This document shows, in pieces, positions 2,902-40,962 of a stretch of 64,000 bases of DNA (position 1 is the stretch's first letter; every line of letters starts with the position of its first letter). The notes beneath the pieces are model-generated. The model saw nothing but the letters and a program-made list of their open reading frames with translations, was not told where the DNA came from and ran no database searches. The DNA is from Candidatus Muiribacteriota bacterium (GTDB lineage: Bacteria > Muiribacteriota > Muiribacteriia > Muiribacteriales > Muiribacteriaceae). The stretch lies in NCBI GenBank assembly GCA_051747805.1, contig JBNJGP010000001.1, positions 5,281 to 69,280 of the forward strand. The letters are read 5' to 3'. Both the position numbers and the translations under genes were made by a program.

Positions 2902-4199
2902 TGGCGGCAAATGATATGAATACAATAGTTTCACTGGCAAAAAGAAGAGGCTTTATATTTCAGTCAAGTGAAATATACGGCGGATTAACTTCCTGCTGGG
3001 ATTATGGTCCATACGGAGTCCTATTAAAAAACAATGTTAAGCAGGCTTGGTGGAAAGACATGGTTTTAACACGCAAAGATATGGTTGGGCTGGATAGCTC
3101 AATATTAATGTCCCCAAAAGTGTGGGAGGCTTCCGGACATGTTGATAATTTTTCTGATCCACTTGTTGACTGTAAGAAGTGTAAGCAGAGATATCGACAG
3201 GATCATATAGAAGGCGAGGAATGTCCTTCATGTAAAGGTGAGTTAACAGAGGCAAGACAGTTTAACTTAATGTTTAAAACTTTTATGGGACCAGTTGAAG
3301 ACGCTGGAAGCACAGCTTTTTTAAGACCTGAAACAGCACAGGGAATTTTTGTAAATTTTAAAAATATAGCAACAACCTCAAGAAAGAAAGTTCCTTTTGG
3401 AATTGCTCAAATAGGTAAATCTTTCAGAAACGAAATTACTCCTGGAAATTTTACTTTTAGAACAAGGGAATTTGAGCAGATGGAGGCTGAATTTTTCTGT
3501 TATCCTGAGGAGTCAGAAAAATTTTATGATTACTGGTCAAATCAGAGATATGAATGGTACAAAAAACTTGGAATAAAAGAAGAAAACCTTCAGTTGAGAG
3601 AGCATGATAAGGATGAACTTGCCCATTATGCTTTAAGTTGTGCAGATGTAGAGTACAGGTTCCCGTTTGGTTTTTCTGAGCTTGAAGGTATTGCCAATAG
3701 AACCGACTTTGATTTAAAAAGGCATATAGAGTTTTCTGGAAAAGATTTAAGTTACGTAGACCCTAAAACAAATAAGAAGTTTGTGCCGCATGTGATTGAG
3801 CCTTCTGCCGGTGCCGACAGGGCAACTCTTGCATTTTTAATTGATGCTTATCATGAAGAAGAACATGACGGTAAAAAAAGGGTGGTGCTTAAATTTGATT
3901 CTGAGCTTGCTCCGGTAAAATTAGCAGTTTTTCCGCTTATGAAAAAGCCGCCATTAAAAGAATTGGCTCAGAAAATATTTGATGAGTCAGTAAAACACTT
4001 TTCTGCAGAGTATGATGAGGTGGGCAGTATTGGAAAAAGGTATAGAAGACAGGACGAAATAGGAACGCCATTTTGTGTTACTGTGGACTTTGATTCTCTG
4101 GAAGATAATACTGTAACAGTTAGAAATCGGGATACTATGGAACAGGAAAGGGTGGCGATAAATAAATTAAGCAAATATATTAAAGACGCCTTGAATTAA
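2901..4199 (+). CDS. glyQS: Glycine--tRNA ligase, dimeric class II (alpha2) type
   Basis: N-terminus [39 protein letters not shown] and [21 protein letters not shown] are typical of alpha2 GlyRS. The start ATG overlaps the upstream stop (TAATG). Confidence 0.9.
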
Positions 4200-4284
4200 A
4201 ATGTTATACTTTGGAAAAAATAATAGATTTCCTCTTTATTATACGTTATAATTATTAAACGACACTTTGTAAGGGGGATTAAAA

Positions 4285-5274
4285 ATGAGAAATTCAAAAA
4301 GGAACTTTATTTTTTTGATTTTACTTTTCTGTATTTTTTCACCTATGGGAAATATTCTTGTTGTAGCAGACGGGGCGTATCCGAATGATGTGAAATATTA
4401 TACAGACAGATTAAGTCAGTTTGAGTATGAGGTTATGGATTCAGAAAATGTTGATATTGATTTATTAAATAATTATAAAGCTGTTTTCTGGATTTGCGGA
4501 GATGCTTTTACCACACTTAAAAATGAGCAGAAAGATATGCTTAAACAGTATATTACAACTGACAATCAAACAGGTTTATTTATTGAGGGCGAAAGATTAA
4601 TGTATGATGCTGCATGGATAGATTATAAGTTCTTTTTCAGAAATTTCTTTAAATCTGATTTTGGCGGACATAAAACTGGAAATGTAAATTTTTCAACTCA
4701 CTGGTCAAATGTTATAACTTGGGGAATAAGAGATGATTTTTATGTAAATCTCGCGGGGAGAGACCTGGATTTTATTGATTATAGAGGAATGTCAGACAAC
4801 GAGGTGCTTTTTGAAATCAAAGAACCTAATCAGAGAGGAAGTTCTTCTAAAGTGGAAGCTGCGGGAGTAGCAATAGATAATTACAAAAATAGAGTTGCCC
4901 TTCTTTCTTTTTCACCGGCTTCTAGAAGCTTCTGGGAAATAGATTCTTCGGATTTTGTAAGAAATCTTGCAGAATGGCTTGTTTATGACATAAGAAACGT
5001 AATGTCAGAATATAATAAAATTGCCTCAAGAAGAACTGAAGAAGATTATGATGAGGCTCAAAGATATACTGAAATGGCTTTTCAGAGAATAGTTGCCGGC
5101 TTTGAAAATAATAATTATCAGGAGTTTGATTATTTAAAAAAAGCAGTAGAAAATCATCAGGTTTCAAAAGAACTCTCAGAAAAAATTTTTATGAGATTAA
5201 AGGAAAAATATACTTCATTAGAAGAATGGCAGCAGAATTTTTCAATAAAAACAAGAATAGAGTTTATGAAGTAG
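4285..5274 (+). CDS. Hypothetical exported protein (signal peptide, then flavodoxin-like/ThuA-like N-domain?)
   Basis: Hydrophobic N-terminus FIFLILLFCIFSPMG. RBS GGGGGA upstream. No recognisable catalytic motif. Confidence 0.5.
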   Translation: MRNSKRNFIFLILLFCIFSPMGNILVVADGAYPNDVKYYTDRLSQFEYEVMDSENVDIDLLNNYKAVFWICGDAFTTLKNEQKDMLKQYITTDNQTGLFIEGERLMYDAAWIDYKFFFRNFFKSDFGGHKTGNVNFSTHWSNVITWGIRDDFYVNLAGRDLDFIDYRGMSDNEVLFEIKEPNQRGSSSKVEAAGVAIDNYKNRVALLSFSPASRSFWEIDSSDFVRNLAEWLVYDIRNVMSEYNKIASRRTEEDYDEAQRYTEMAFQRIVAGFENNNYQEFDYLKKAVENHQVSKELSEKIFMRLKEKYTSLEEWQQNFSIKTRIEFMK

Positions 5275-5301
5275 AATTAATTTATTTATAAGGAGTTTTA
5301 T

Positions 5302-6630
5302 ATGTCGTATGAAGTTATAGTAATTGGTGGAAATGCTGCCGGTTTATCAGCCGCGATGGAGGCTAAAAGGCAGAATCCATCATTTAAAATAACAGTTTTT
5401 GAAAAAGGGGAGTTTATTTCCTATGGGGCCTGCGGACTACCTTATTATCTAGGTGGAATGTTAGAAAACCCTGATGATTTAATGGCAAAGCCCCCTTCCT
5501 ATTTTGAAAAAAAAGATGTAAAAGTTTATAAAAACACTCCGGTTATTGATATAAACAGCCGTGATAGAAAAATTACTGCATTATTTAACAATAAAGAACA
5601 GGAGTTTGGCTGGGATAAACTTATAATTGCAACAGGAGCCTATCCTAGAAAACTACCTTTTGAAAAAGAAAATCTTAAAAACCTGTTCCATTTTACTAAA
5701 ATAGAGCATGTTGTAAACGTAAAAAAATTTATAAACGAGAATAATGTAAAAAAAGTTATGATTATTGGTGGCGGATATATTGGTATTGAAGTTGCGGATA
5801 ATCTTGTTAAATCTGGTATAGATGTTTCAATGGTTGAGTTAAACAGGATTTTATCAGTTTTTGATAAAGATGTTTTAAAACCTGTGTACAATAAAATAAA
5901 TAATAATAAAAAATTCACTTTATATGAAGAAATAGGTATCAGCAGTTTAAATGAAGAAAATAATAAAGTTAGAAGTGTTTCTCTTTCAAATGGCGAAAAA
6001 TTACCATGTGATATGATAATTGTCAGTGCGGGTGTTATTCCCGAAACAGAGCTGGCGCAGAAGGCTGGGATAAAAATTGGTGAAACTGGTGCAATTGAGG
6101 TTAACTCAAAGGGGCAGACAAGTAATCACAATGTTTTTGCGGCCGGGGACTGTGCTGAGATTTATCATGACTTGCTTAAAAAAAATGTTTATATACCTCT
6201 TGGAACCAACGCAAACAGAGCTGGTAAAACTGTGGGCAGAAATCTTGAAGTTGCAAAAGAAGAGGTCAAAGTACTGGGAAACTCTATGCTTGAAGCTTTT
6301 GATGTTGAAATTGCCAGTGTTGGTTTAACCGAAAGTCTCGCCATAAAAAATAACTATAATTATATTGCCAGAATGTCAAGTTTTAGATTAAAACCTGGTT
6401 ATGTTTCGAATCAAAAAATTTTGATAAAATATATTATTGATAAATATTCAAAACAACTTCTGGGTGTTCAGATGGCTGGTGATGCAGAGGTTCATGGTAA
6501 AATAAACTGTGCCTCGATAATGATTAATAATAAAATGACCTTAAAAGATATTCAGAAGTTGGATTTTGGCTATCACCCTCTGCTTTCAGGACTTTGGGAT
6601 CCTCTTGTACTTATGGTCAGGAAGTTTTAA
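5302..6630 (+). CDS. FAD-dependent pyridine nucleotide-disulfide oxidoreductase, CoA-disulfide reductase / NADH oxidase family
   Basis: GxGxxG FAD site VIVIGGNAAGLSAA. Redox Cys in SYGACGLPYY, the CoADR/Nox/Npx signature. Second Rossmann IIGGGYIGIE. RBS AAGGAG. Confidence 0.8.
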   Translation: MSYEVIVIGGNAAGLSAAMEAKRQNPSFKITVFEKGEFISYGACGLPYYLGGMLENPDDLMAKPPSYFEKKDVKVYKNTPVIDINSRDRKITALFNNKEQEFGWDKLIIATGAYPRKLPFEKENLKNLFHFTKIEHVVNVKKFINENNVKKVMIIGGGYIGIEVADNLVKSGIDVSMVELNRILSVFDKDVLKPVYNKINNNKKFTLYEEIGISSLNEENNKVRSVSLSNGEKLPCDMIIVSAGVIPETELAQKAGIKIGETGAIEVNSKGQTSNHNVFAAGDCAEIYHDLLKKNVYIPLGTNANRAGKTVGRNLEVAKEEVKVLGNSMLEAFDVEIASVGLTESLAIKNNYNYIARMSSFRLKPGYVSNQKILIKYIIDKYSKQLLGVQMAGDAEVHGKINCASIMINNKMTLKDIQKLDFGYHPLLSGLWDPLVLMVRKF

Positions 6631-9479: not shown

Positions 9480-9599
9480 AAATTTTTTCTGGTATTTTTA
9501 GAACTTGAGTTTAGAATTGTTTTGTTGACAACTAATGTTTTTTAGTGCAGATTAGGTTAGAAGAATATTTTTTTAAAGTAGATGCGGAGGTTTATTATT

Positions 9600-13277: not shown

Positions 13278-13314
13278 AAAAAGGGGGCCGTTGAATTTGC
13301 CCCCCCTTTTTTTA
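13274..13314. terminator. Bidirectional rho-independent terminator between convergent genes
   Basis: AAAAAAAGGGGGCcgttgaatttGCCCCCCCTTTTTTT. GC stem flanked by an A-run and a T-run, 0-5 nt from both stop codons. Confidence 0.7.
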
Positions 13315-13322
13315 TTTCTGTT

Positions 13323-20977: not shown

Positions 20978-21958
20978 ATGGCAGAATTAAGGAAGGATCC
21001 AGTTTCACAAAGATGGATTATTATATCTGACAAGGAGTTAAATCCTGAAGATTATCTTTATAACGAGGCTAAGAATTCCAACAACACAGAAAATTGTCCT
21101 TTCTGCGATAAAAATTCACATATGATTGAAAAGGAGATTTTAAGAACATCATATAATAATCGATGGGCTGCAAGAATTGTAAATAATAAATTTCCTGCCC
21201 TGATTTCTGAGGTAGAGCTTGAAAAAGAGGCGGACGGTGTTTATGATAAAATGAGTGGTTACGGCTATCATGAGGTTATAATTGACAGTTATGAACATTT
21301 TGTCCCGTTTCACAAGACAAGTCCCGAAAAGATAGAAAAAGTTCTTGAGGCCATGGTAAAAAGGTACAGAGAATTAAAAAAAGATAAGAATTTAAAATAT
21401 GTACTTTTTTTTAAAAATTACGGAGCTTCTGCGGGGGCTTCACTTTCCCATTCACATGCACAGCTTGTTGCTACGCCTGTTGTTCCAAAAATCGTAATGA
21501 ACGAGCTTCTTTTTTCAAAAAAATATTTTAATTATAAAGAAAGATGTTTATTCTGCGATTTAATTAATCAGGAAAAAAAAGATAAAGAGAGATTAATAAC
21601 TTTTAATCAGGATTTTTATGCGTTTGTTCCCTATGCTCCAAGATTTCCTTTTGAAACATGGATTTTACCTGAACTTCATAATTCCAGCTTTGGAAATATA
21701 AAAAATTGTGAATTGAAAAATTTAGCTGTTATAATTAAAGAATGTATTAACAGATTAGAAAAAGTTTTTAAAAACCTTCCTTTTAATTTTGTAATACATA
21801 CAGCTCCTTTTGAAAATAATTGTGGGGATTACTATCACTGGCATATTGAGATTATGCCCCGGCTGACAAAGGTGGCCGGTTTTGAATGGGGCTCGGGGTT
21901 TTATGTAAATGAAACAAGCCCTGAAAAAGCTGCCGGGATTTTAAGAGAGGCATTTTAG
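20978..21958 (+). CDS. GalT-like (HIT superfamily) hexose-1-phosphate nucleotidyltransferase, paralog 1
   Basis: Zn-site CPFCDKNSH. HIT-type HSHAQ histidine motif (SLSHSHAQLV). C-terminal HWHIEIMPRLTKVAGFEWGSGFYVN, conserved with paralog 2. Confidence 0.75.
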   Translation: MAELRKDPVSQRWIIISDKELNPEDYLYNEAKNSNNTENCPFCDKNSHMIEKEILRTSYNNRWAARIVNNKFPALISEVELEKEADGVYDKMSGYGYHEVIIDSYEHFVPFHKTSPEKIEKVLEAMVKRYRELKKDKNLKYVLFFKNYGASAGASLSHSHAQLVATPVVPKIVMNELLFSKKYFNYKERCLFCDLINQEKKDKERLITFNQDFYAFVPYAPRFPFETWILPELHNSSFGNIKNCELKNLAVIIKECINRLEKVFKNLPFNFVIHTAPFENNCGDYYHWHIEIMPRLTKVAGFEWGSGFYVNETSPEKAAGILREAF

Positions 21959-23411: not shown

Positions 23412-24422
23412 ATGAGAGATTACAGAAAAGACCCAATTACACGACGCTGGGTAATAATATCTTCTGATAGAAGCAAGAGACCAAGAGATTTTGGTCATGT
23501 AACAGATATTACTGATGACAAAAACTGCCCTTTCTGCGAAGGAAACGAAGATATGACTCCTCCTGAAATTTTTGCACTCCGGGAAAATGGCGAAGAAAAC
23601 GGCCCAGGGTGGAAGGCAAGAGTAATTCCTGACAAATATTCCATTCTTGAAAATAGAGGAGATGTTAAAAAAAAGGGCCATGGTATATATGATAGCATGA
23701 GTGCCACAGGATTTCATGAACTTATAATAGAAACGCCTAATCATATGGGAAGTCTTGCAAATTTAAGTTTTGATGAAATAAAAACCTATTTAAAGGTGTT
23801 AAAAACAAGAATGGGGGAACTTAAAAACGATTATAGAATACAGTATATACTTGCCGTTAAAAATTATGGATCTGAGGCAGGGGCCAAGTTTAAACATTCA
23901 CATTCACATTCTCATATTGTTGGCCTGCCTATTGTTCCAAAAAGAGTTAAAGAAGAGATTGACGGAGCAAAAGAATATTACAGCTTCCGGGAAAGATGTG
24001 TATTCTGTGATATTGCCGCCCAGGAACTTGCTGAAAACGAAAGAATAATATTAAATAATGAGGATTTTATATCATTATGTACATATGCGGCCCGGTTTCC
24101 ATATGAAACACATATTTATCCTAAAAAACATATTTCATCCTTTGAGGATACGCCTGAGGAAATGTTTGATAATCTGGCCCGTATTTTAAAAAAAACTATT
24201 TTATCTTTATGTAAGGTTATTGATACATTAGCCTATAATATAGTTATTCATACTAAACCAGTTAACCAGGTTGTGCCTGTTTTATATCACTGGCATATTG
24301 AAATAATGCCTAGAGTAACAAAAGTTGCAGGGTTTGAATGGGGTTCAGGTTTTTATATTAATTCTGTTCTTCCTGAAGATGCTGCAAAGTTAATGAAAGA
24401 AAAAATTAATGAGGGGGTTTAA
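23412..24422 (+). CDS. GalT-like (HIT superfamily) hexose-1-phosphate nucleotidyltransferase, paralog 2
   Basis: CPFCEGNEDM, FKHSHSHSHIVGLP, HWHIEIMPRVTKVAGFEWGSGFYIN. Same architecture as 20978..21958. Confidence 0.75.
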   Translation: MRDYRKDPITRRWVIISSDRSKRPRDFGHVTDITDDKNCPFCEGNEDMTPPEIFALRENGEENGPGWKARVIPDKYSILENRGDVKKKGHGIYDSMSATGFHELIIETPNHMGSLANLSFDEIKTYLKVLKTRMGELKNDYRIQYILAVKNYGSEAGAKFKHSHSHSHIVGLPIVPKRVKEEIDGAKEYYSFRERCVFCDIAAQELAENERIILNNEDFISLCTYAARFPYETHIYPKKHISSFEDTPEEMFDNLARILKKTILSLCKVIDTLAYNIVIHTKPVNQVVPVLYHWHIEIMPRVTKVAGFEWGSGFYINSVLPEDAAKLMKEKINEGV

Positions 24423-26391: not shown

Positions 26392-26985
26392 ATGATTTTA
26401 GGTATTTGTGGAAAAATTGGCAGTGGAAAAACATTGTTGTCTGAATTTTTTAAAAATAATCAAAACAGTTATATAATTAACTGCGACAAACTGGCCTCAG
26501 AGTTAATTAACGATAAACAGGAAATTCTTGAATTAATTTCAAAAAATTTCGGCTCCAAACTGATTATAAATAATCAGCTGAATAAAAAAATGATGAGAAA
26601 AATTGTCTTCAATGATAAAAAAAGTCTTTATAAACTTAATCAGATAGTTCATCCCTTTCTTTTTAATGAAGTGAAAAATATTTTAAATATAGAAGAGCTT
26701 AAATCTGAATACAGTTATATAGTTGTAGAGGCTGCTGTTTTATATGAAGCTTCTTTATATAAGCTTGTTGATAAAATTATATGGGTGAGTGCAAAGCTGC
26801 ATAATATACTTCAGAGAGTAAGTTTAAGGGATAAAGATAAAAGAAAAAATATTGAAAATATATACAAAATTCAAAAATCATATAATGAAGTGCAACCAGA
26901 GCCTGATATAGTTATAGAAAATAATAAAACAGTCAATGAATTTAAAAAAAAAGCAGGGAGTCTTGTTGCCTCCCTTAATAAATAA
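26392..26985 (+). CDS. coaE: Dephospho-CoA kinase
   Basis: P-loop ILGICGKIGSGKT at the N-terminus, ~197 aa, CoaE-like layout (HP motif in IVHPFL). Confidence 0.75.
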   Translation: MILGICGKIGSGKTLLSEFFKNNQNSYIINCDKLASELINDKQEILELISKNFGSKLIINNQLNKKMMRKIVFNDKKSLYKLNQIVHPFLFNEVKNILNIEELKSEYSYIVVEAAVLYEASLYKLVDKIIWVSAKLHNILQRVSLRDKDKRKNIENIYKIQKSYNEVQPEPDIVIENNKTVNEFKKKAGSLVASLNK

Positions 26986-27116
26986 CTTGAGTTTAGCAAA
27001 AAATAGAAATTTTAACCTGTCAGCAATTCTCAATGAAAATAGAGAAAATCCTTGATTTGATGGGGTCAGGCCGAGCCCAAATTTAAGCCAGCAGAGGTCG
27101 GCCTGACCACTCAAGT
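26986..27116. repeat. Intergenic repeat element copy A (TIR-bearing MITE-like / structured-RNA-like family); internally deleted and inserted relative to copy C
   Basis: Shares its first 29 nt (cttgagtttagcaaaaaatagaaatttta) exactly with the element at 40791. Contains an 11-bp perfect hairpin GGTCAGGCCGA/TCGGCCTGACC. Ends in ACTCAAGT, matching the right TIR of copy C. Fills the whole gap between convergent coaE and the dehydrogenase gene. Confidence 0.6.
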
Positions 27117-27125
27117 TTAAATTTA

Positions 27126-28037
27126 CTATATAAAGTCTTTAATAATTGAAACTATTTCATCACCAACACGCCCCTGTGCTTCTTTTGTCTGTGCTCCAAC
27201 ATGAGGAGAGGCCACAAGAACTTTTTCGTGGTTAACAAGGTCAGAATTATCTGTTGGTTCTTTTTCATAAACATCAATTCCTGCTCCGGCAATTTCATCA
27301 TTATTTAAAGCATTAAGCAGAGATTTTTCACAAACTACACCACCGCGGGCACAGTTAATAAGAAATGAAGTGTTTTTCATTTTTTTAAGCTCATCTTCGG
27401 CAATTACAGGTTCGCCTGTAAAAGGAACGTGAAGTGAGATAAAGTCGGCGTATGATAAAACAGCTTCTTTATCTTTGAAATCAATGTATGAGGGAAGATT
27501 ATCGACTTTGAAAACATCACAGGCAACTACTTTCATACCAACAGCATTAGCAACTTTCGCAAGCTGTTGTCCTATTCGTCCAATTCCTATAATTCCAAGG
27601 GTTTTTCCGGCTAGTTCAAACCCTTTGAATTTTTTCTTTTCCCATTTACCTTCTTTCATTGAAGTGGTTGAATTATAGAGATTTCTTGCAATTGTAAACA
27701 TCATGGCAATTGCTAATTCTGCAACTGCAGCTGAGCTTGCACTTGGAGTATTTGTAACTTTAATTCCTAATTCTCTAGCTCTATCAAGGTCAATATTATC
27801 AAGCCCAACACCACCTCTGATAATAAGTTTCATATTTTGAGCTTTTTCAAGAATTTCTGCTCTCATTTTTGTGGCAGAACGTACAACTGCGATATTATAC
27901 TCTGGTACAACTTCTTTTAACTCATCAGGATTCATACCTGTTTTAACAGTAACATCCAAACCTGAAATGTTTTTTAATGCTTCAAGACATGAATCGGCAA
28001 CCGGATCACAAATTAACGCTTTCATAAAGCCTCCCAT
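27126..28037 (-). CDS. D-isomer-specific 2-hydroxyacid dehydrogenase family (phosphoglycerate dehydrogenase/hydroxypyruvate reductase-like), NAD-binding
   Basis: GIIGIGRIGQQLAKVANAVGMKVVACD (NAD Rossmann). Catalytic region NCARGGVV..E..L and HVGAQTKEA (His/Glu pair). Confidence 0.8.
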   Translation of the reverse strand: MGGFMKALICDPVADSCLEALKNISGLDVTVKTGMNPDELKEVVPEYNIAVVRSATKMRAEILEKAQNMKLIIRGGVGLDNIDLDRARELGIKVTNTPSASSAAVAELAIAMMFTIARNLYNSTTSMKEGKWEKKKFKGFELAGKTLGIIGIGRIGQQLAKVANAVGMKVVACDVFKVDNLPSYIDFKDKEAVLSYADFISLHVPFTGEPVIAEDELKKMKNTSFLINCARGGVVCEKSLLNALNNDEIAGAGIDVYEKEPTDNSDLVNHEKVLVASPHVGAQTKEAQGRVGDEIVSIIKDFI

Positions 28038-29952: not shown

Positions 29953-30025
29953 TAATGCTTAGAAACATAACGGGGTCTGTGCCGAGCCTGAATTTAAGCT
30001 TACAGAGGTCGGCCTGACCACTCGC
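29953..30025. repeat. Intergenic repeat element copy B (core module only, no 29-nt left module)
   Basis: cggggtctgtgccgagcctgaatttaagcttacagaggtcggcctgaccactc aligns to the cores of copies A and C (GGGG.C.TGTGCCGA ... AATT ... GAGGTCGGCCTGACCAC). Confidence 0.5.
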
Positions 30026-30097
30026 TTTATATTAAAATTTTTTGGACAGTATAAAAAGATTATGTTAAATTATAAAAAAGTTTCTGGAGGAAATTCA

Positions 30098-30625
30098 GTG
30101 TATAAAGTTTGTTATTATGGTAATCCAGTATTAAGAAAAGAAAGTAAGGATGTTGAGGTTAATGAAGAAAATCTTAAACTGGCCTATAAAATGCTTGAAG
30201 TAATGAAAAAATATAAAGGAATAGGTTTAGCTGCTCCTCAAATCGGAATATCAAAAAAAATTTTTGTTGCTCAGCTTGCCGAAGAAGAAGACCCATTAAT
30301 TATTTTTAATTTAAAAATACTTGAATATTCTGAAGAAAAAAATGTGATGGAAGAGGGGTGTCTTTCTCTCCCGGGAATATATGAACAGGTAACAAGACCT
30401 GAAAAAGTTAAAGTTAGTTTTCTTGATAAAGAGGGAAAAGAGCATATAAAGGTAGTTGATAAAGTTCTTGCCAGAGTATTTCAGCATGAGGGAGACCATT
30501 TATATGGAAAACTTTTTATAGATTATCTTTCTCTTATTAAAAAGAATTTATTAAAGAAGAAGTTAAATAAAATTAAAAAAGGTATTATTCCAGAAGAGTT
30601 TCTTCCGGAGGAAGACCTAAAATGA
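30098..30625 (+). CDS. def: Peptide deformylase
   Basis: GIGLAAPQIG, EGCLSLPG, HEGDHL(Y) are the three Def motifs. GTG at 30098 preceded by GGAGG fits the Def N-terminus better than the ORF-track ATG at 30062. Confidence 0.85.
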   Translation: MYKVCYYGNPVLRKESKDVEVNEENLKLAYKMLEVMKKYKGIGLAAPQIGISKKIFVAQLAEEEDPLIIFNLKILEYSEEKNVMEEGCLSLPGIYEQVTRPEKVKVSFLDKEGKEHIKVVDKVLARVFQHEGDHLYGKLFIDYLSLIKKNLLKKKLNKIKKGIIPEEFLPEEDLK

Positions 30626-31560: not shown

Positions 31561-31611
31561 CTTTATAAAAATATAGGTTTATAATTACCTACAAGAAAAT
31601 TAAGGAGGAAT

Positions 31612-31914
31612 ATGATGGGTTTAGATACTTTACAATTGATACTGCTTGTGGTTCATACACTTGTTGCGATTTCAATAATTGTTTTTGTTCTTATGCAGGC
31701 TGACAAAGGAGAAGGTTTATCAGGAGCTTTCGGTGGCGGAGCCGCTCAAACTATGTTTGGTGCAAAAGGAAGTCTTGATTTTTTTGGAAAGATGACAACA
31801 ATACTTGCGATAATCTTTATATTAACCTCAATAACTTTAACATATATATCAAGCAGAGATTATGGAACTTCGCCAAGTATTAATCCTAATGATGCTCAGC
31901 AGCAAGATGCTTAA
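31612..31914 (+). CDS. secG: Preprotein translocase subunit SecG
   Basis: Two TM helices with LMQADKGEGLSGAFGGGA between them. RBS AGGAGG. Confidence 0.85.
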   Translation: MMGLDTLQLILLVVHTLVAISIIVFVLMQADKGEGLSGAFGGGAAQTMFGAKGSLDFFGKMTTILAIIFILTSITLTYISSRDYGTSPSINPNDAQQQDA

Positions 31915-31935
31915 AAATAGTTAGAGGAGAAATAA

Positions 31936-34521: not shown

Positions 34522-34564
34522 TCTGAAACTGATAAATAAGATAGTAGTTTAATAAAAATAAAAA

Positions 34565-34592
34565 GGGCAGACGGAAAGTCTGCTCTTTTTTT
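34565..34592 (+). terminator. Rho-independent terminator after the M16 peptidase gene
   Basis: GGGCAGACggaaaGTCTGCTC followed by TTTTTTT. Confidence 0.65.
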
Positions 34593-34678
34593 AAATTGAA
34601 TTGCATGGTTTTTTGCAACATTTCTTAAAAAAATGTGGTAACCTGACAAATAAAGGACTGATTGATAGAGGATATTAT

Positions 34679-40762: not shown

Positions 40763-40789
40763 TAAAATAAGCAGGCTGGTTATTCAGTA

Positions 40790-40939
40790 ACTTGAGTTTA
40801 GCAAAAAATAGAAATTTTACCCCGTAGACACTTAAAAAGCTTGATTTCACGGGGGGGCTGTGCCGACATCAAATTCTGATAAGAATTTGTGTAGGCCTGA
40901 CCACAAAAGCCTTTTAAGAAAATTTGCTAAACTCAAGTC
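40790..40939. repeat. Intergenic repeat element copy C, most complete, with 16-nt terminal inverted repeats
   Basis: Left TIR cttgagtttagcaaaa (40791-40806) and right TIR ttttgctaaactcaag (ttgctaaactcaag at 40925-40938; the window shows 'atttgctaaactcaag'). Internal CCCCGT...ACGGGG stem. Core gggggggctgtgccgac...aatt...taggcctgaccac is shared with copies A and B. Confidence 0.6.
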
Positions 40940-40962
40940 AGTAATTATAATGGAGTTTTAAT

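Follow-up and report, generated by a model that had tools for sequence, protein, structure and literature searches.

Correia elements (CREE/NEMIS) of Neisseria are non-coding MITEs some 100-155 bp in length, whose terminal inverted repeats (TIRs) measure 26 bp and whose target duplication is TA. They are intergenic, occur as full-length and internally deleted variants, form long RNA hairpins and can supply terminators, RNA-processing sites and outward promoters. A second type of element, the REP, is an imperfect palindrome of 20-40 bp with a short loop, which is extragenic and is located between convergent or unidirectional ORFs, as set out in PMC3733652. On comparison, Correia-type MITEs and REP/BIME elements appear to be the closest kinds to the sequence that concerns us here, a composite element (copy A) in the gap between coaE and a convergent dehydrogenase gene, within a 64-kb stretch of Muiribacteriota DNA that we refer to as the window. 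The CoaE, M16 peptidase and PGM-like proteins encoded there each match a protein of a metagenome-assembled Candidatus Muiribacteriota bacterium at 100% identity. We consider it likely, with a probability of roughly 0.7, that copy A belongs to a small MITE-like family, non-coding and non-autonomous, which has a REP-like core and is restricted to some Muiribacteriota, and that it is a composite member of this family in a state of decay.

The family resembles the Correia elements in being non-coding, in its similar size, in possessing, in its full form, terminal inverted repeats and a short duplication, in lying between genes and in occurring in full and reduced forms. A promoter-like sequence across the right end of a second copy in the window, copy C, also recalls their outward promoters. 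There is, however, no sequence similarity between the two, the TIRs are of 15-16 bp rather than 26 bp, the duplication is of 5-7 bp rather than TA, the central GC-rich palindrome is also found solo, and the hosts are uncultured Muiribacteriota. With REP, REPIN and BIME sequences, as PMC3733652 and PMC2817692 describe them, the family shares a GC-rich extragenic palindrome that lies downstream of ORFs and often between convergent genes, conserved arms around a more variable centre, a mosaic arrangement with other short modules, and proposed roles in termination and mRNA stabilisation. It departs from the REPs described there in its dimensions (a stem of 11-13 bp, a loop of 18-26 nt and 45-50 nt in total), which place it outside the strict limits of size and loop, and in having no clear GTAG/CGTC tag. 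Unlike those of a REP doublet, the individual arms are not themselves palindromic, and no RAYT (REP-associated tyrosine transposase) was seen in the 64-kb window. Finally, copy A has the convergent gap and the stable GC stem of a canonical bidirectional intrinsic terminator, but it differs from one in its 23-nt loop, in lacking flanking A and T tracts and in having a sequence that is repeated at unrelated loci.

Table 1. Positions in the window of the three repeat copies, their parts and the neighbouring features
Feature	Position	Strand	Remarks
coaE (dephospho-CoA kinase)	26392..26985	+	stop codon abuts copy A
Copy A, whole composite element	26986..27116	+	131 nt; left terminal module, leader, GC-rich hairpin core, right-end stub
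Copy A, left terminal module	26986..27014	+	29/29 identical to copy C 40791-40819
Copy A, terminal inverted repeat CTTGAGTTTAGCAAA in left module	26986-27000	+	
Copy A, leader segment TCAGCAATTCTCAATGAAAATAGAGAAAATCCTTGATTTGAT	27020..27061	+	the "insertion" of the preliminary description plus the rejoining stretch; collinear with L285 77-120
Copy A, core unit	27055..27122	+	limits set by covariance model R2, 77.2 bits
Copy A, left arm GGTCAGGCCGA	27064..27074	+	perfect 11-bp stem
Copy A, loop GCCCAAATTTAAGCCAGCAGAGG	27075..27097	+	23 nt
Copy A, right arm TCGGCCTGACC	27098..27108	+	exact reverse complement of left arm
Copy A, right-end stub ACTCAAGT	27109..27116	+	matches outer 8 nt of copy C right terminal repeat
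D-2-hydroxyacid dehydrogenase	27126..28037	-	convergent with coaE; stop 9 nt past copy A
Copy B, core only	29965..30033	+	hairpin 29974-30019 with tail CACTCGCTTT; neighbours are a 116-aa ORF and def
Copy C, complete element	40791..40937	+	147 bp; TIRs and core variant
Copy C, left TIR CTTGAGTTTAGCAAA	40791-40805		pairs 15/15 with right TIR
Copy C, right TIR TTTGCTAAACTCAAG	40923-40937		pairs 15/15 with left TIR
Copy C, core variant	40846-40916	+	53 bits with R2
Left flanking direct repeat TCAGTAA of copy C	40784..40790		putative target-site duplication
Right flanking direct repeat TCAGTAA of copy C	40938..40944		flush with element end
Solitary terminal-repeat match AACTTGAGTTTAG	9502..9514	+	13 nt exact; 102-nt intergenic gap 9480-9581 after uvrA

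Copy A opens with CTTGAG at 26986, directly after the TAA of coaE (26983-26985), and on its other side 9 nt (27117-27125) separate it from the minus-strand dehydrogenase ORF, which with its stop extends to 27126. This is where a preliminary description of the DNA had placed it, and the sequence and the ORF list agree with that placement. Both flanking genes are recognized by Pfam (CoaE, E=2e-33; 2-Hacid_dh_C, E=1e-49), and the sole ORF that overlaps copy A is a spurious antisense one of 78 aa. The left module had been described as identical to that of copy C, and the identity is indeed exact; it ends at 29 nt, with a different base at position 30 (0 matches in 100 shuffles), and the alignment of the two left ends scores 32 compared with a shuffle mean of 8.7. 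The perfect 11-bp hairpin core that was reported is present as well, with exactly complementary arms and 8 G-C pairs in a window whose GC content is about 31%, although the loop, given as 22 nt, proves to be one nucleotide longer. The 11-mer GGTCAGGCCGA, at no more than one mismatch, has four matches in the window compared with 0.11 expected, and all of these lie in repeat copies. Folding on both strands had been proposed as a check, and it yields a stable hairpin either way. The core folds with -29.2 kcal/mol on the plus strand and -28.4 on the minus strand (z about -4), the whole element has z values of -3.4 and -3.6, and the 45-nt stem-loop alone gives -22.7 and -24.5 kcal/mol. When the core is read on the minus strand, its R2 score falls from 77.2 to 15.4 bits, and its orientation can therefore be defined.

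The right end of copy A is less complete, and is short of copy C by about 28 nt. The terminal repeats of copy A consist only of CTTGAGT/ACTCAAG, 7-8 nt, a part of which belongs to the core tail. The preliminary description had matched ccactcaagt at this end to the right TIR of copy C. This match stands for AAGT, which is specific to the TIR, but CCACTC is also found in two core-only copies, copy B and a metagenomic copy, L118, in both of which the ACTC of the stub likewise falls within the core tail. The flanks read TAAATAA on the left and TTTAAAT on the right, that is, without a target duplication. Because this duplication is missing and little more than a stub is left of the right end, we regard copy A as decayed, and it is probably no longer able to move.

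Repeat finding, BLAST and two covariance models, R1 and R2, agree on three copies in the 64-kb window, and these are its only strong matches to R2, with 77, 79 and 53 bits for A, B and C. R2 was trained on copy C, which it scores at 53 bits; R1, which was not, gives this copy 15.6 bits (E=0.04). The proposal that copy A belongs to a dispersed repeat is borne out by shared boundaries, with a common left terminus, with A, B and C all found by R2, and with cores elsewhere in the Muiribacteriota. The left module is common to two of the three window copies, A and C. Judged by its sequence, copy C is a complete miniature transposon, and the full element in this form comprises an AT-rich leader, the GC-rich hairpin core and an AT-rich tail. 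The duplication at its ends shortens to CAGTA when 16 bp are assigned to the TIR. The gap between the DUF2344 and RNase G genes that contains copy C measures 200 nt here compared with 43 nt in a syntenic relative, L282, in which the site is an operon-like junction. Subtraction of the 147-nt element and of one 7-nt repeat from the 200 nt leaves 46 nt, close to this value of 43. A short distance ahead of the RNase G start (40963), at 40924-40951, is the promoter-like TTGCTA-16-TATAAT (10/12), with its -35 within the right terminal repeat and its -10 in the flanking DNA; AT-rich DNA often yields matches of this kind (shuffle mean 1.2). It could be a hybrid promoter made by the insertion.

The idea that copy B has a degenerate left module reaching into the 116-aa ORF was rejected, since the alignment scores 12 compared with a shuffle mean of 11.4. 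Beyond copy B, at 30043-30100, we note a promoter-like TGGACA-17-TAAATT, followed by GGAGG and a GTG at about 30098, and def may start at this GTG rather than at the ATG at 30062. The solitary match after uvrA may be the remnant terminus of a lost copy. Pfam searches of all sizeable ORFs in the window found only housekeeping genes and no transposase, the Y1 and RAYT types included.

To look beyond the window, 126 kb of non-redundant sequence from other Muiribacteriota was searched, drawn from the surroundings of M16 peptidase and PGM homologues. In L279 and L280 a core, which scores 62 bits with R1 in L279, follows directly on the canonical terminator of an M16 gene whose product is 57% identical to that of the window. 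L285, with a PGM that is 56% identical, has two cores, one in its own coaE/dehydrogenase gap and one at 122-170 (L285-122). Model searches found no cores in about 87 kb of five other lineages (L281-L284, L287-L289), among them Ca. Muirbacterium halophilum. The presence of cores in L279/L280 and L285 and their absence from these lineages indicate that the family is patchy within the phylum, and its sites appear for the most part not to be orthologous. A metagenome scan with the hairpin pattern gave, among the matches listed, only one real copy, L118 (metagenome Ga0265293, GC 0.30), the rest being mostly GC-rich chance matches. The L118 core is 89.6% identical to copy B over 67 nt and has the same ends (GGGGTC...CACTCGCTTT). 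The GC-rich hairpin core thus found, solo or reframed, in two or three other Muiribacteriota lineages appears to be the most widespread module of the family. All seven distinct copies are extragenic, three of them in convergent gaps and the remainder downstream of genes.

Among 185,579 genomes the terminal 19-mer gave 42 single chance matches in unrelated taxa, none of which extends past the pattern. Scans of viral contigs and BLAST against phages and plasmids returned nothing related to the family, and the five viral matches to the 18-mer all fall within unrelated phage sequence. As far as these searches and those of Rfam reach, nothing like the family is on record. The Muiribacteriota are known here only from metagenome assemblies, and the family accounts for odd intergenic sequence in them and probably for some contig breaks (L279, L280). 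Two independent assemblies of the same organism, from ENA and Logan (L279, 12646-12819; L280, 9831-9905), end about 20-120 nt past the core copy, about 120 nt in the case of L279, as would be expected of assemblers breaking at a repeat if it is multi-copy. In L118 a 1.3-kb non-coding region (4354-5624) lies downstream of a tmRNA gene (4005-4354), which is the only feature there that Rfam recognizes. The region is built of two units that partly repeat each other and abound in short, perfect hairpins. Compared with its neighbour, the unit that bears the core carries a block of 421-428 nt between 7-nt direct repeats, TAAGAGC, and this block also contains rearranged neighbouring sequence.

The leader of copy A provides a view of how the family is put together. 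Of 289 loci, three contain AGCAATTCTCAATG, namely copy A, L285 (with its duplicate L286) and L118. The full left terminus TCAGCAATTCTCAATGAA, at 27020-27037 in copy A, recurs in these same three contexts. In L285/L286 AGCAATTCTCAATG is situated just upstream of the second L285 core, and in L118 the first 18 nt of the leader stand alone, directly 3' of the tmRNA gene. Copy A and L285 are collinear from the terminus through the leader (…GAAAAT.A.AGAAAAT.CT.G.TTTG…) to the core, and copy C is without the first part of the leader. This collinearity implies that the leader of copy A is ancestral and has been lost from copy C, so that the stretch of about 30 nt first taken for an insertion in copy A is better read as a loss from copy C. 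The L285 copy has an inverted repeat of its own, AATTCTCAAT/ATTGAGAATT. The family as a whole appears to be modular, with nested palindromes, and most copies seem to have been cut down to the GC-rich core.

The core consensus is GGGGTC.G.GCCG ... CGGCC.GACC[A/C]C. In an alignment of the seven distinct copies, a 15-pair stem has standard pairs in 82.5% of its cells, a figure that falls to 23-57% when the partners are slid. Covariation among these seven copies is not significant; there are three double changes, a number equalled or exceeded in 81-119 of 500 shuffles. The combination of high pairing and no significant covariation indicates that the hairpin is kept by conservation of both arms. 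The loop is similar in A, B, L118, L279 and the copy in the L285 gap; in C and L285-122 its place is taken by an inner AT-rich hairpin of 8 bp. Rfam gave no match at gathering thresholds anywhere in the window, and around copy A only two matches at E<=10, both at chance level (E 2.6 and 4.4), while a search of the window for tRNA and tmRNA genes with ARAGORN came back empty. A reading of GGGGTC...CCAC as SRP-RNA or tmRNA-like was set aside, as it has no support from Rfam. Integron attC sites, dif/Xer sites and uptake-sequence pairs were also rejected; their defining motifs are absent from the arms, and the 11-mer is confined to the repeat copies.

It had been suggested that copy A doubles as a bidirectional terminator, and here the evidence is divided. 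In its favor, the orthologous gap holds either the same hairpin or canonical terminators. A homologous hairpin, GGGGTCAGGCCGC-N22-GCGGCCAGACCCC, fills the coaE(+)/2-Hacid_dh(-) gap of L285, which is 64 nt in length. R1, not having been trained on this hairpin, scores it at 29.7 bits; R2 gives it 60 bits on the minus strand compared with 24 on the other, and it is therefore inverted relative to copy A. In L287 and L288 the gap carries textbook bidirectional terminators (A-tract/hairpin/T-tract), and L282 has the same terminator after its dehydrogenase gene. Against the suggestion, the 23-nt loop lies outside the 3-8 nt of the short loops of intrinsic terminators, although the GC stem conforms to them; no U-tract adjoins the stem, the plus strand continuing with ACUCAAGUUUAAAUUU and the minus strand with CCAUCAAAUCAAGGAUUUU, and a terminator consensus scan did not call copy A. 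The window supplies an internal standard for terminators in this genome, in the form of a bidirectional one in another convergent gap (13278-13322, AAAAAGGGGGG…CCCCCCCTTTTTTT, with an A-tract, a G/C stem and a T-tract) and a second canonical one at 34560-34595, and copy A is unlike both. Moreover, the L279 and L285-122 copies adjoin canonical terminators rather than replacing them, which suggests that the family accumulates in permissive 3' regions and is not needed as a terminator. Because copy A is the only hairpin in its gap and takes the place of the canonical terminator of the outgroups, its most likely present role is to provide both convergent transcripts with their 3'-end hairpin, by exaptation and not as its primary nature. 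It could cause pausing or termination of both, or it could shield them from 3' exonucleases.

How much of this might instead be explained by function at gene ends depends on the following arguments. The core might be a portable 3'-end module, a mobile terminator or RNA-stability hairpin, that, in the coaE/dehydrogenase gap of one lineage, took the place of an ancestral bidirectional terminator of the canonical kind. Such a module would act without a U-tract, for example by blocking exonucleases or through a protein that recognizes its conserved arms or its loop, and conservation of the core across lineages with 56-57% protein identity would then reflect host function; we think this unlikely. 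A version without mobility, in which the hairpin is a host terminator or 3'-end hairpin inherited from an ancestor shared with the L285 organism and the copies are alike through selection on a lineage-specific, possibly factor-dependent terminator, would account for the fact that the orthologous gap is filled by the hairpin in the two closest lineages and by canonical bidirectional terminators in outgroups. Every copy is at a gene 3' end, the core orientation has a U-rich tail (CUCGCUUU(U) in B and L118, CUCGUUUU in L285), and a promoter-like site comes between copy B and def, all of which would suit inheritance. However, the terminators of unrelated genes are not normally 80-90% identical with their loops included, ordinary terminators with short loops and T-runs do exist in this genome, and the copies in the window and L285 gaps are oppositely oriented. 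In addition, the termini of A and C are of the transposon type, and C is bordered by a target duplication; its orthologous site in L282 is empty and forms an operon-like junction of 43 nt. We judge that descent of a terminator is a quite improbable explanation.

A distinctly unlikely alternative is that the core is a REP-type element, moved alone as single-stranded DNA by a RAYT-like HUH/Y1 enzyme, and that the TIR-bounded form (C and A) is a different transposon that captured one. Solo cores (B, L118, L279 and the L285 gap) do outnumber framed ones, a GC-rich palindrome in a 31% GC genome is in keeping with this idea, and the locations, extragenic and between convergent or unidirectional ORFs, are those given for REPs in PMC3733652. 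The bottom strand opens with G-T-G-G in A, B, L118 and C, and GTGG heads appear among the Pseudomonas REPs in PMC2817692. But the L285 copies have GGGG as their head and L279 has CTGG, and the last two bases of the head are paired; the stem-loop of 45-50 nt, with a loop of 18-26 nt, exceeds the 20-40 bp and short loops of REPs in PMC3733652, and the 64-kb window contains no Y1 transposase. The core might also be a structured non-coding RNA or protein-binding RNA motif, a 3'-UTR element or small RNA with a functional conserved loop of 18-23 nt. The loop is partly conserved across lineages (xCCyrAAT.TWAAryyAGCArAG), the model tells the strands apart (77 vs 15 bits for A, 60 vs 24 for the L285 gap), and one U-G pair is compatible only with the plus reading. 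These features have to be set against an unrelated inner hairpin in place of the loop in C and L285-122, covariation no higher than in controls, no Rfam family even at E<=10 and no promoter-like site upstream of copy A, and we regard this possibility as very improbable indeed.

If copy A is, as we prefer, a decayed member of a mobile family, the copies would owe their spread to a transposase from another part of the genome, and the TIRs and duplication of copy C suggest a cut-and-paste enzyme of the DDE type. The solo cores could be deletion remnants, or might have been moved separately by a RAYT-like enzyme. Some observations run contrary to this reading. The arms are conserved across lineages in which PGM and the M16 peptidase are only 56-57% identical, which could indicate a function at the level of the host rather than selfish spread, and the occupation of the same gap in the window and in L285 could reflect descent rather than insertion. 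The comparison of empty sites also differs between copies, since the orthologous gaps of copy A contain a terminator in L287 and L288 and a solo core in L285, and a short empty site was found for C (L282).

These results extend known MITE and REP biology to a new lineage and do not overturn current understanding. A single convergent gap that carries either a canonical two-way terminator or a repeat hairpin amounts to a small natural experiment on whether a mobile palindrome can assume the duty of a terminator. With respect to expression, copy C appears to have inserted in an operon-like junction, to which it would bring a promoter-like -35 element.

Two further features of the window may be recorded. 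The 375-nt gap between fmt and the M16 peptidase gene (31561-31935), without an ORF in the 110-aa list, corresponds by synteny to secG, which encodes 96-104 aa in L279, L281-L283 and L288. Two galactose-1-phosphate uridylyltransferase-like (HIT/DUF4921) genes, paralogues of each other, lie at 20978-21958 and 23412-24422 on either side of a gene for a glycogen/starch synthase; they contain stretches of DNA, 2452 nt apart, that are 72-79% identical, and the arrangement is kept in L285, L287 and L289.
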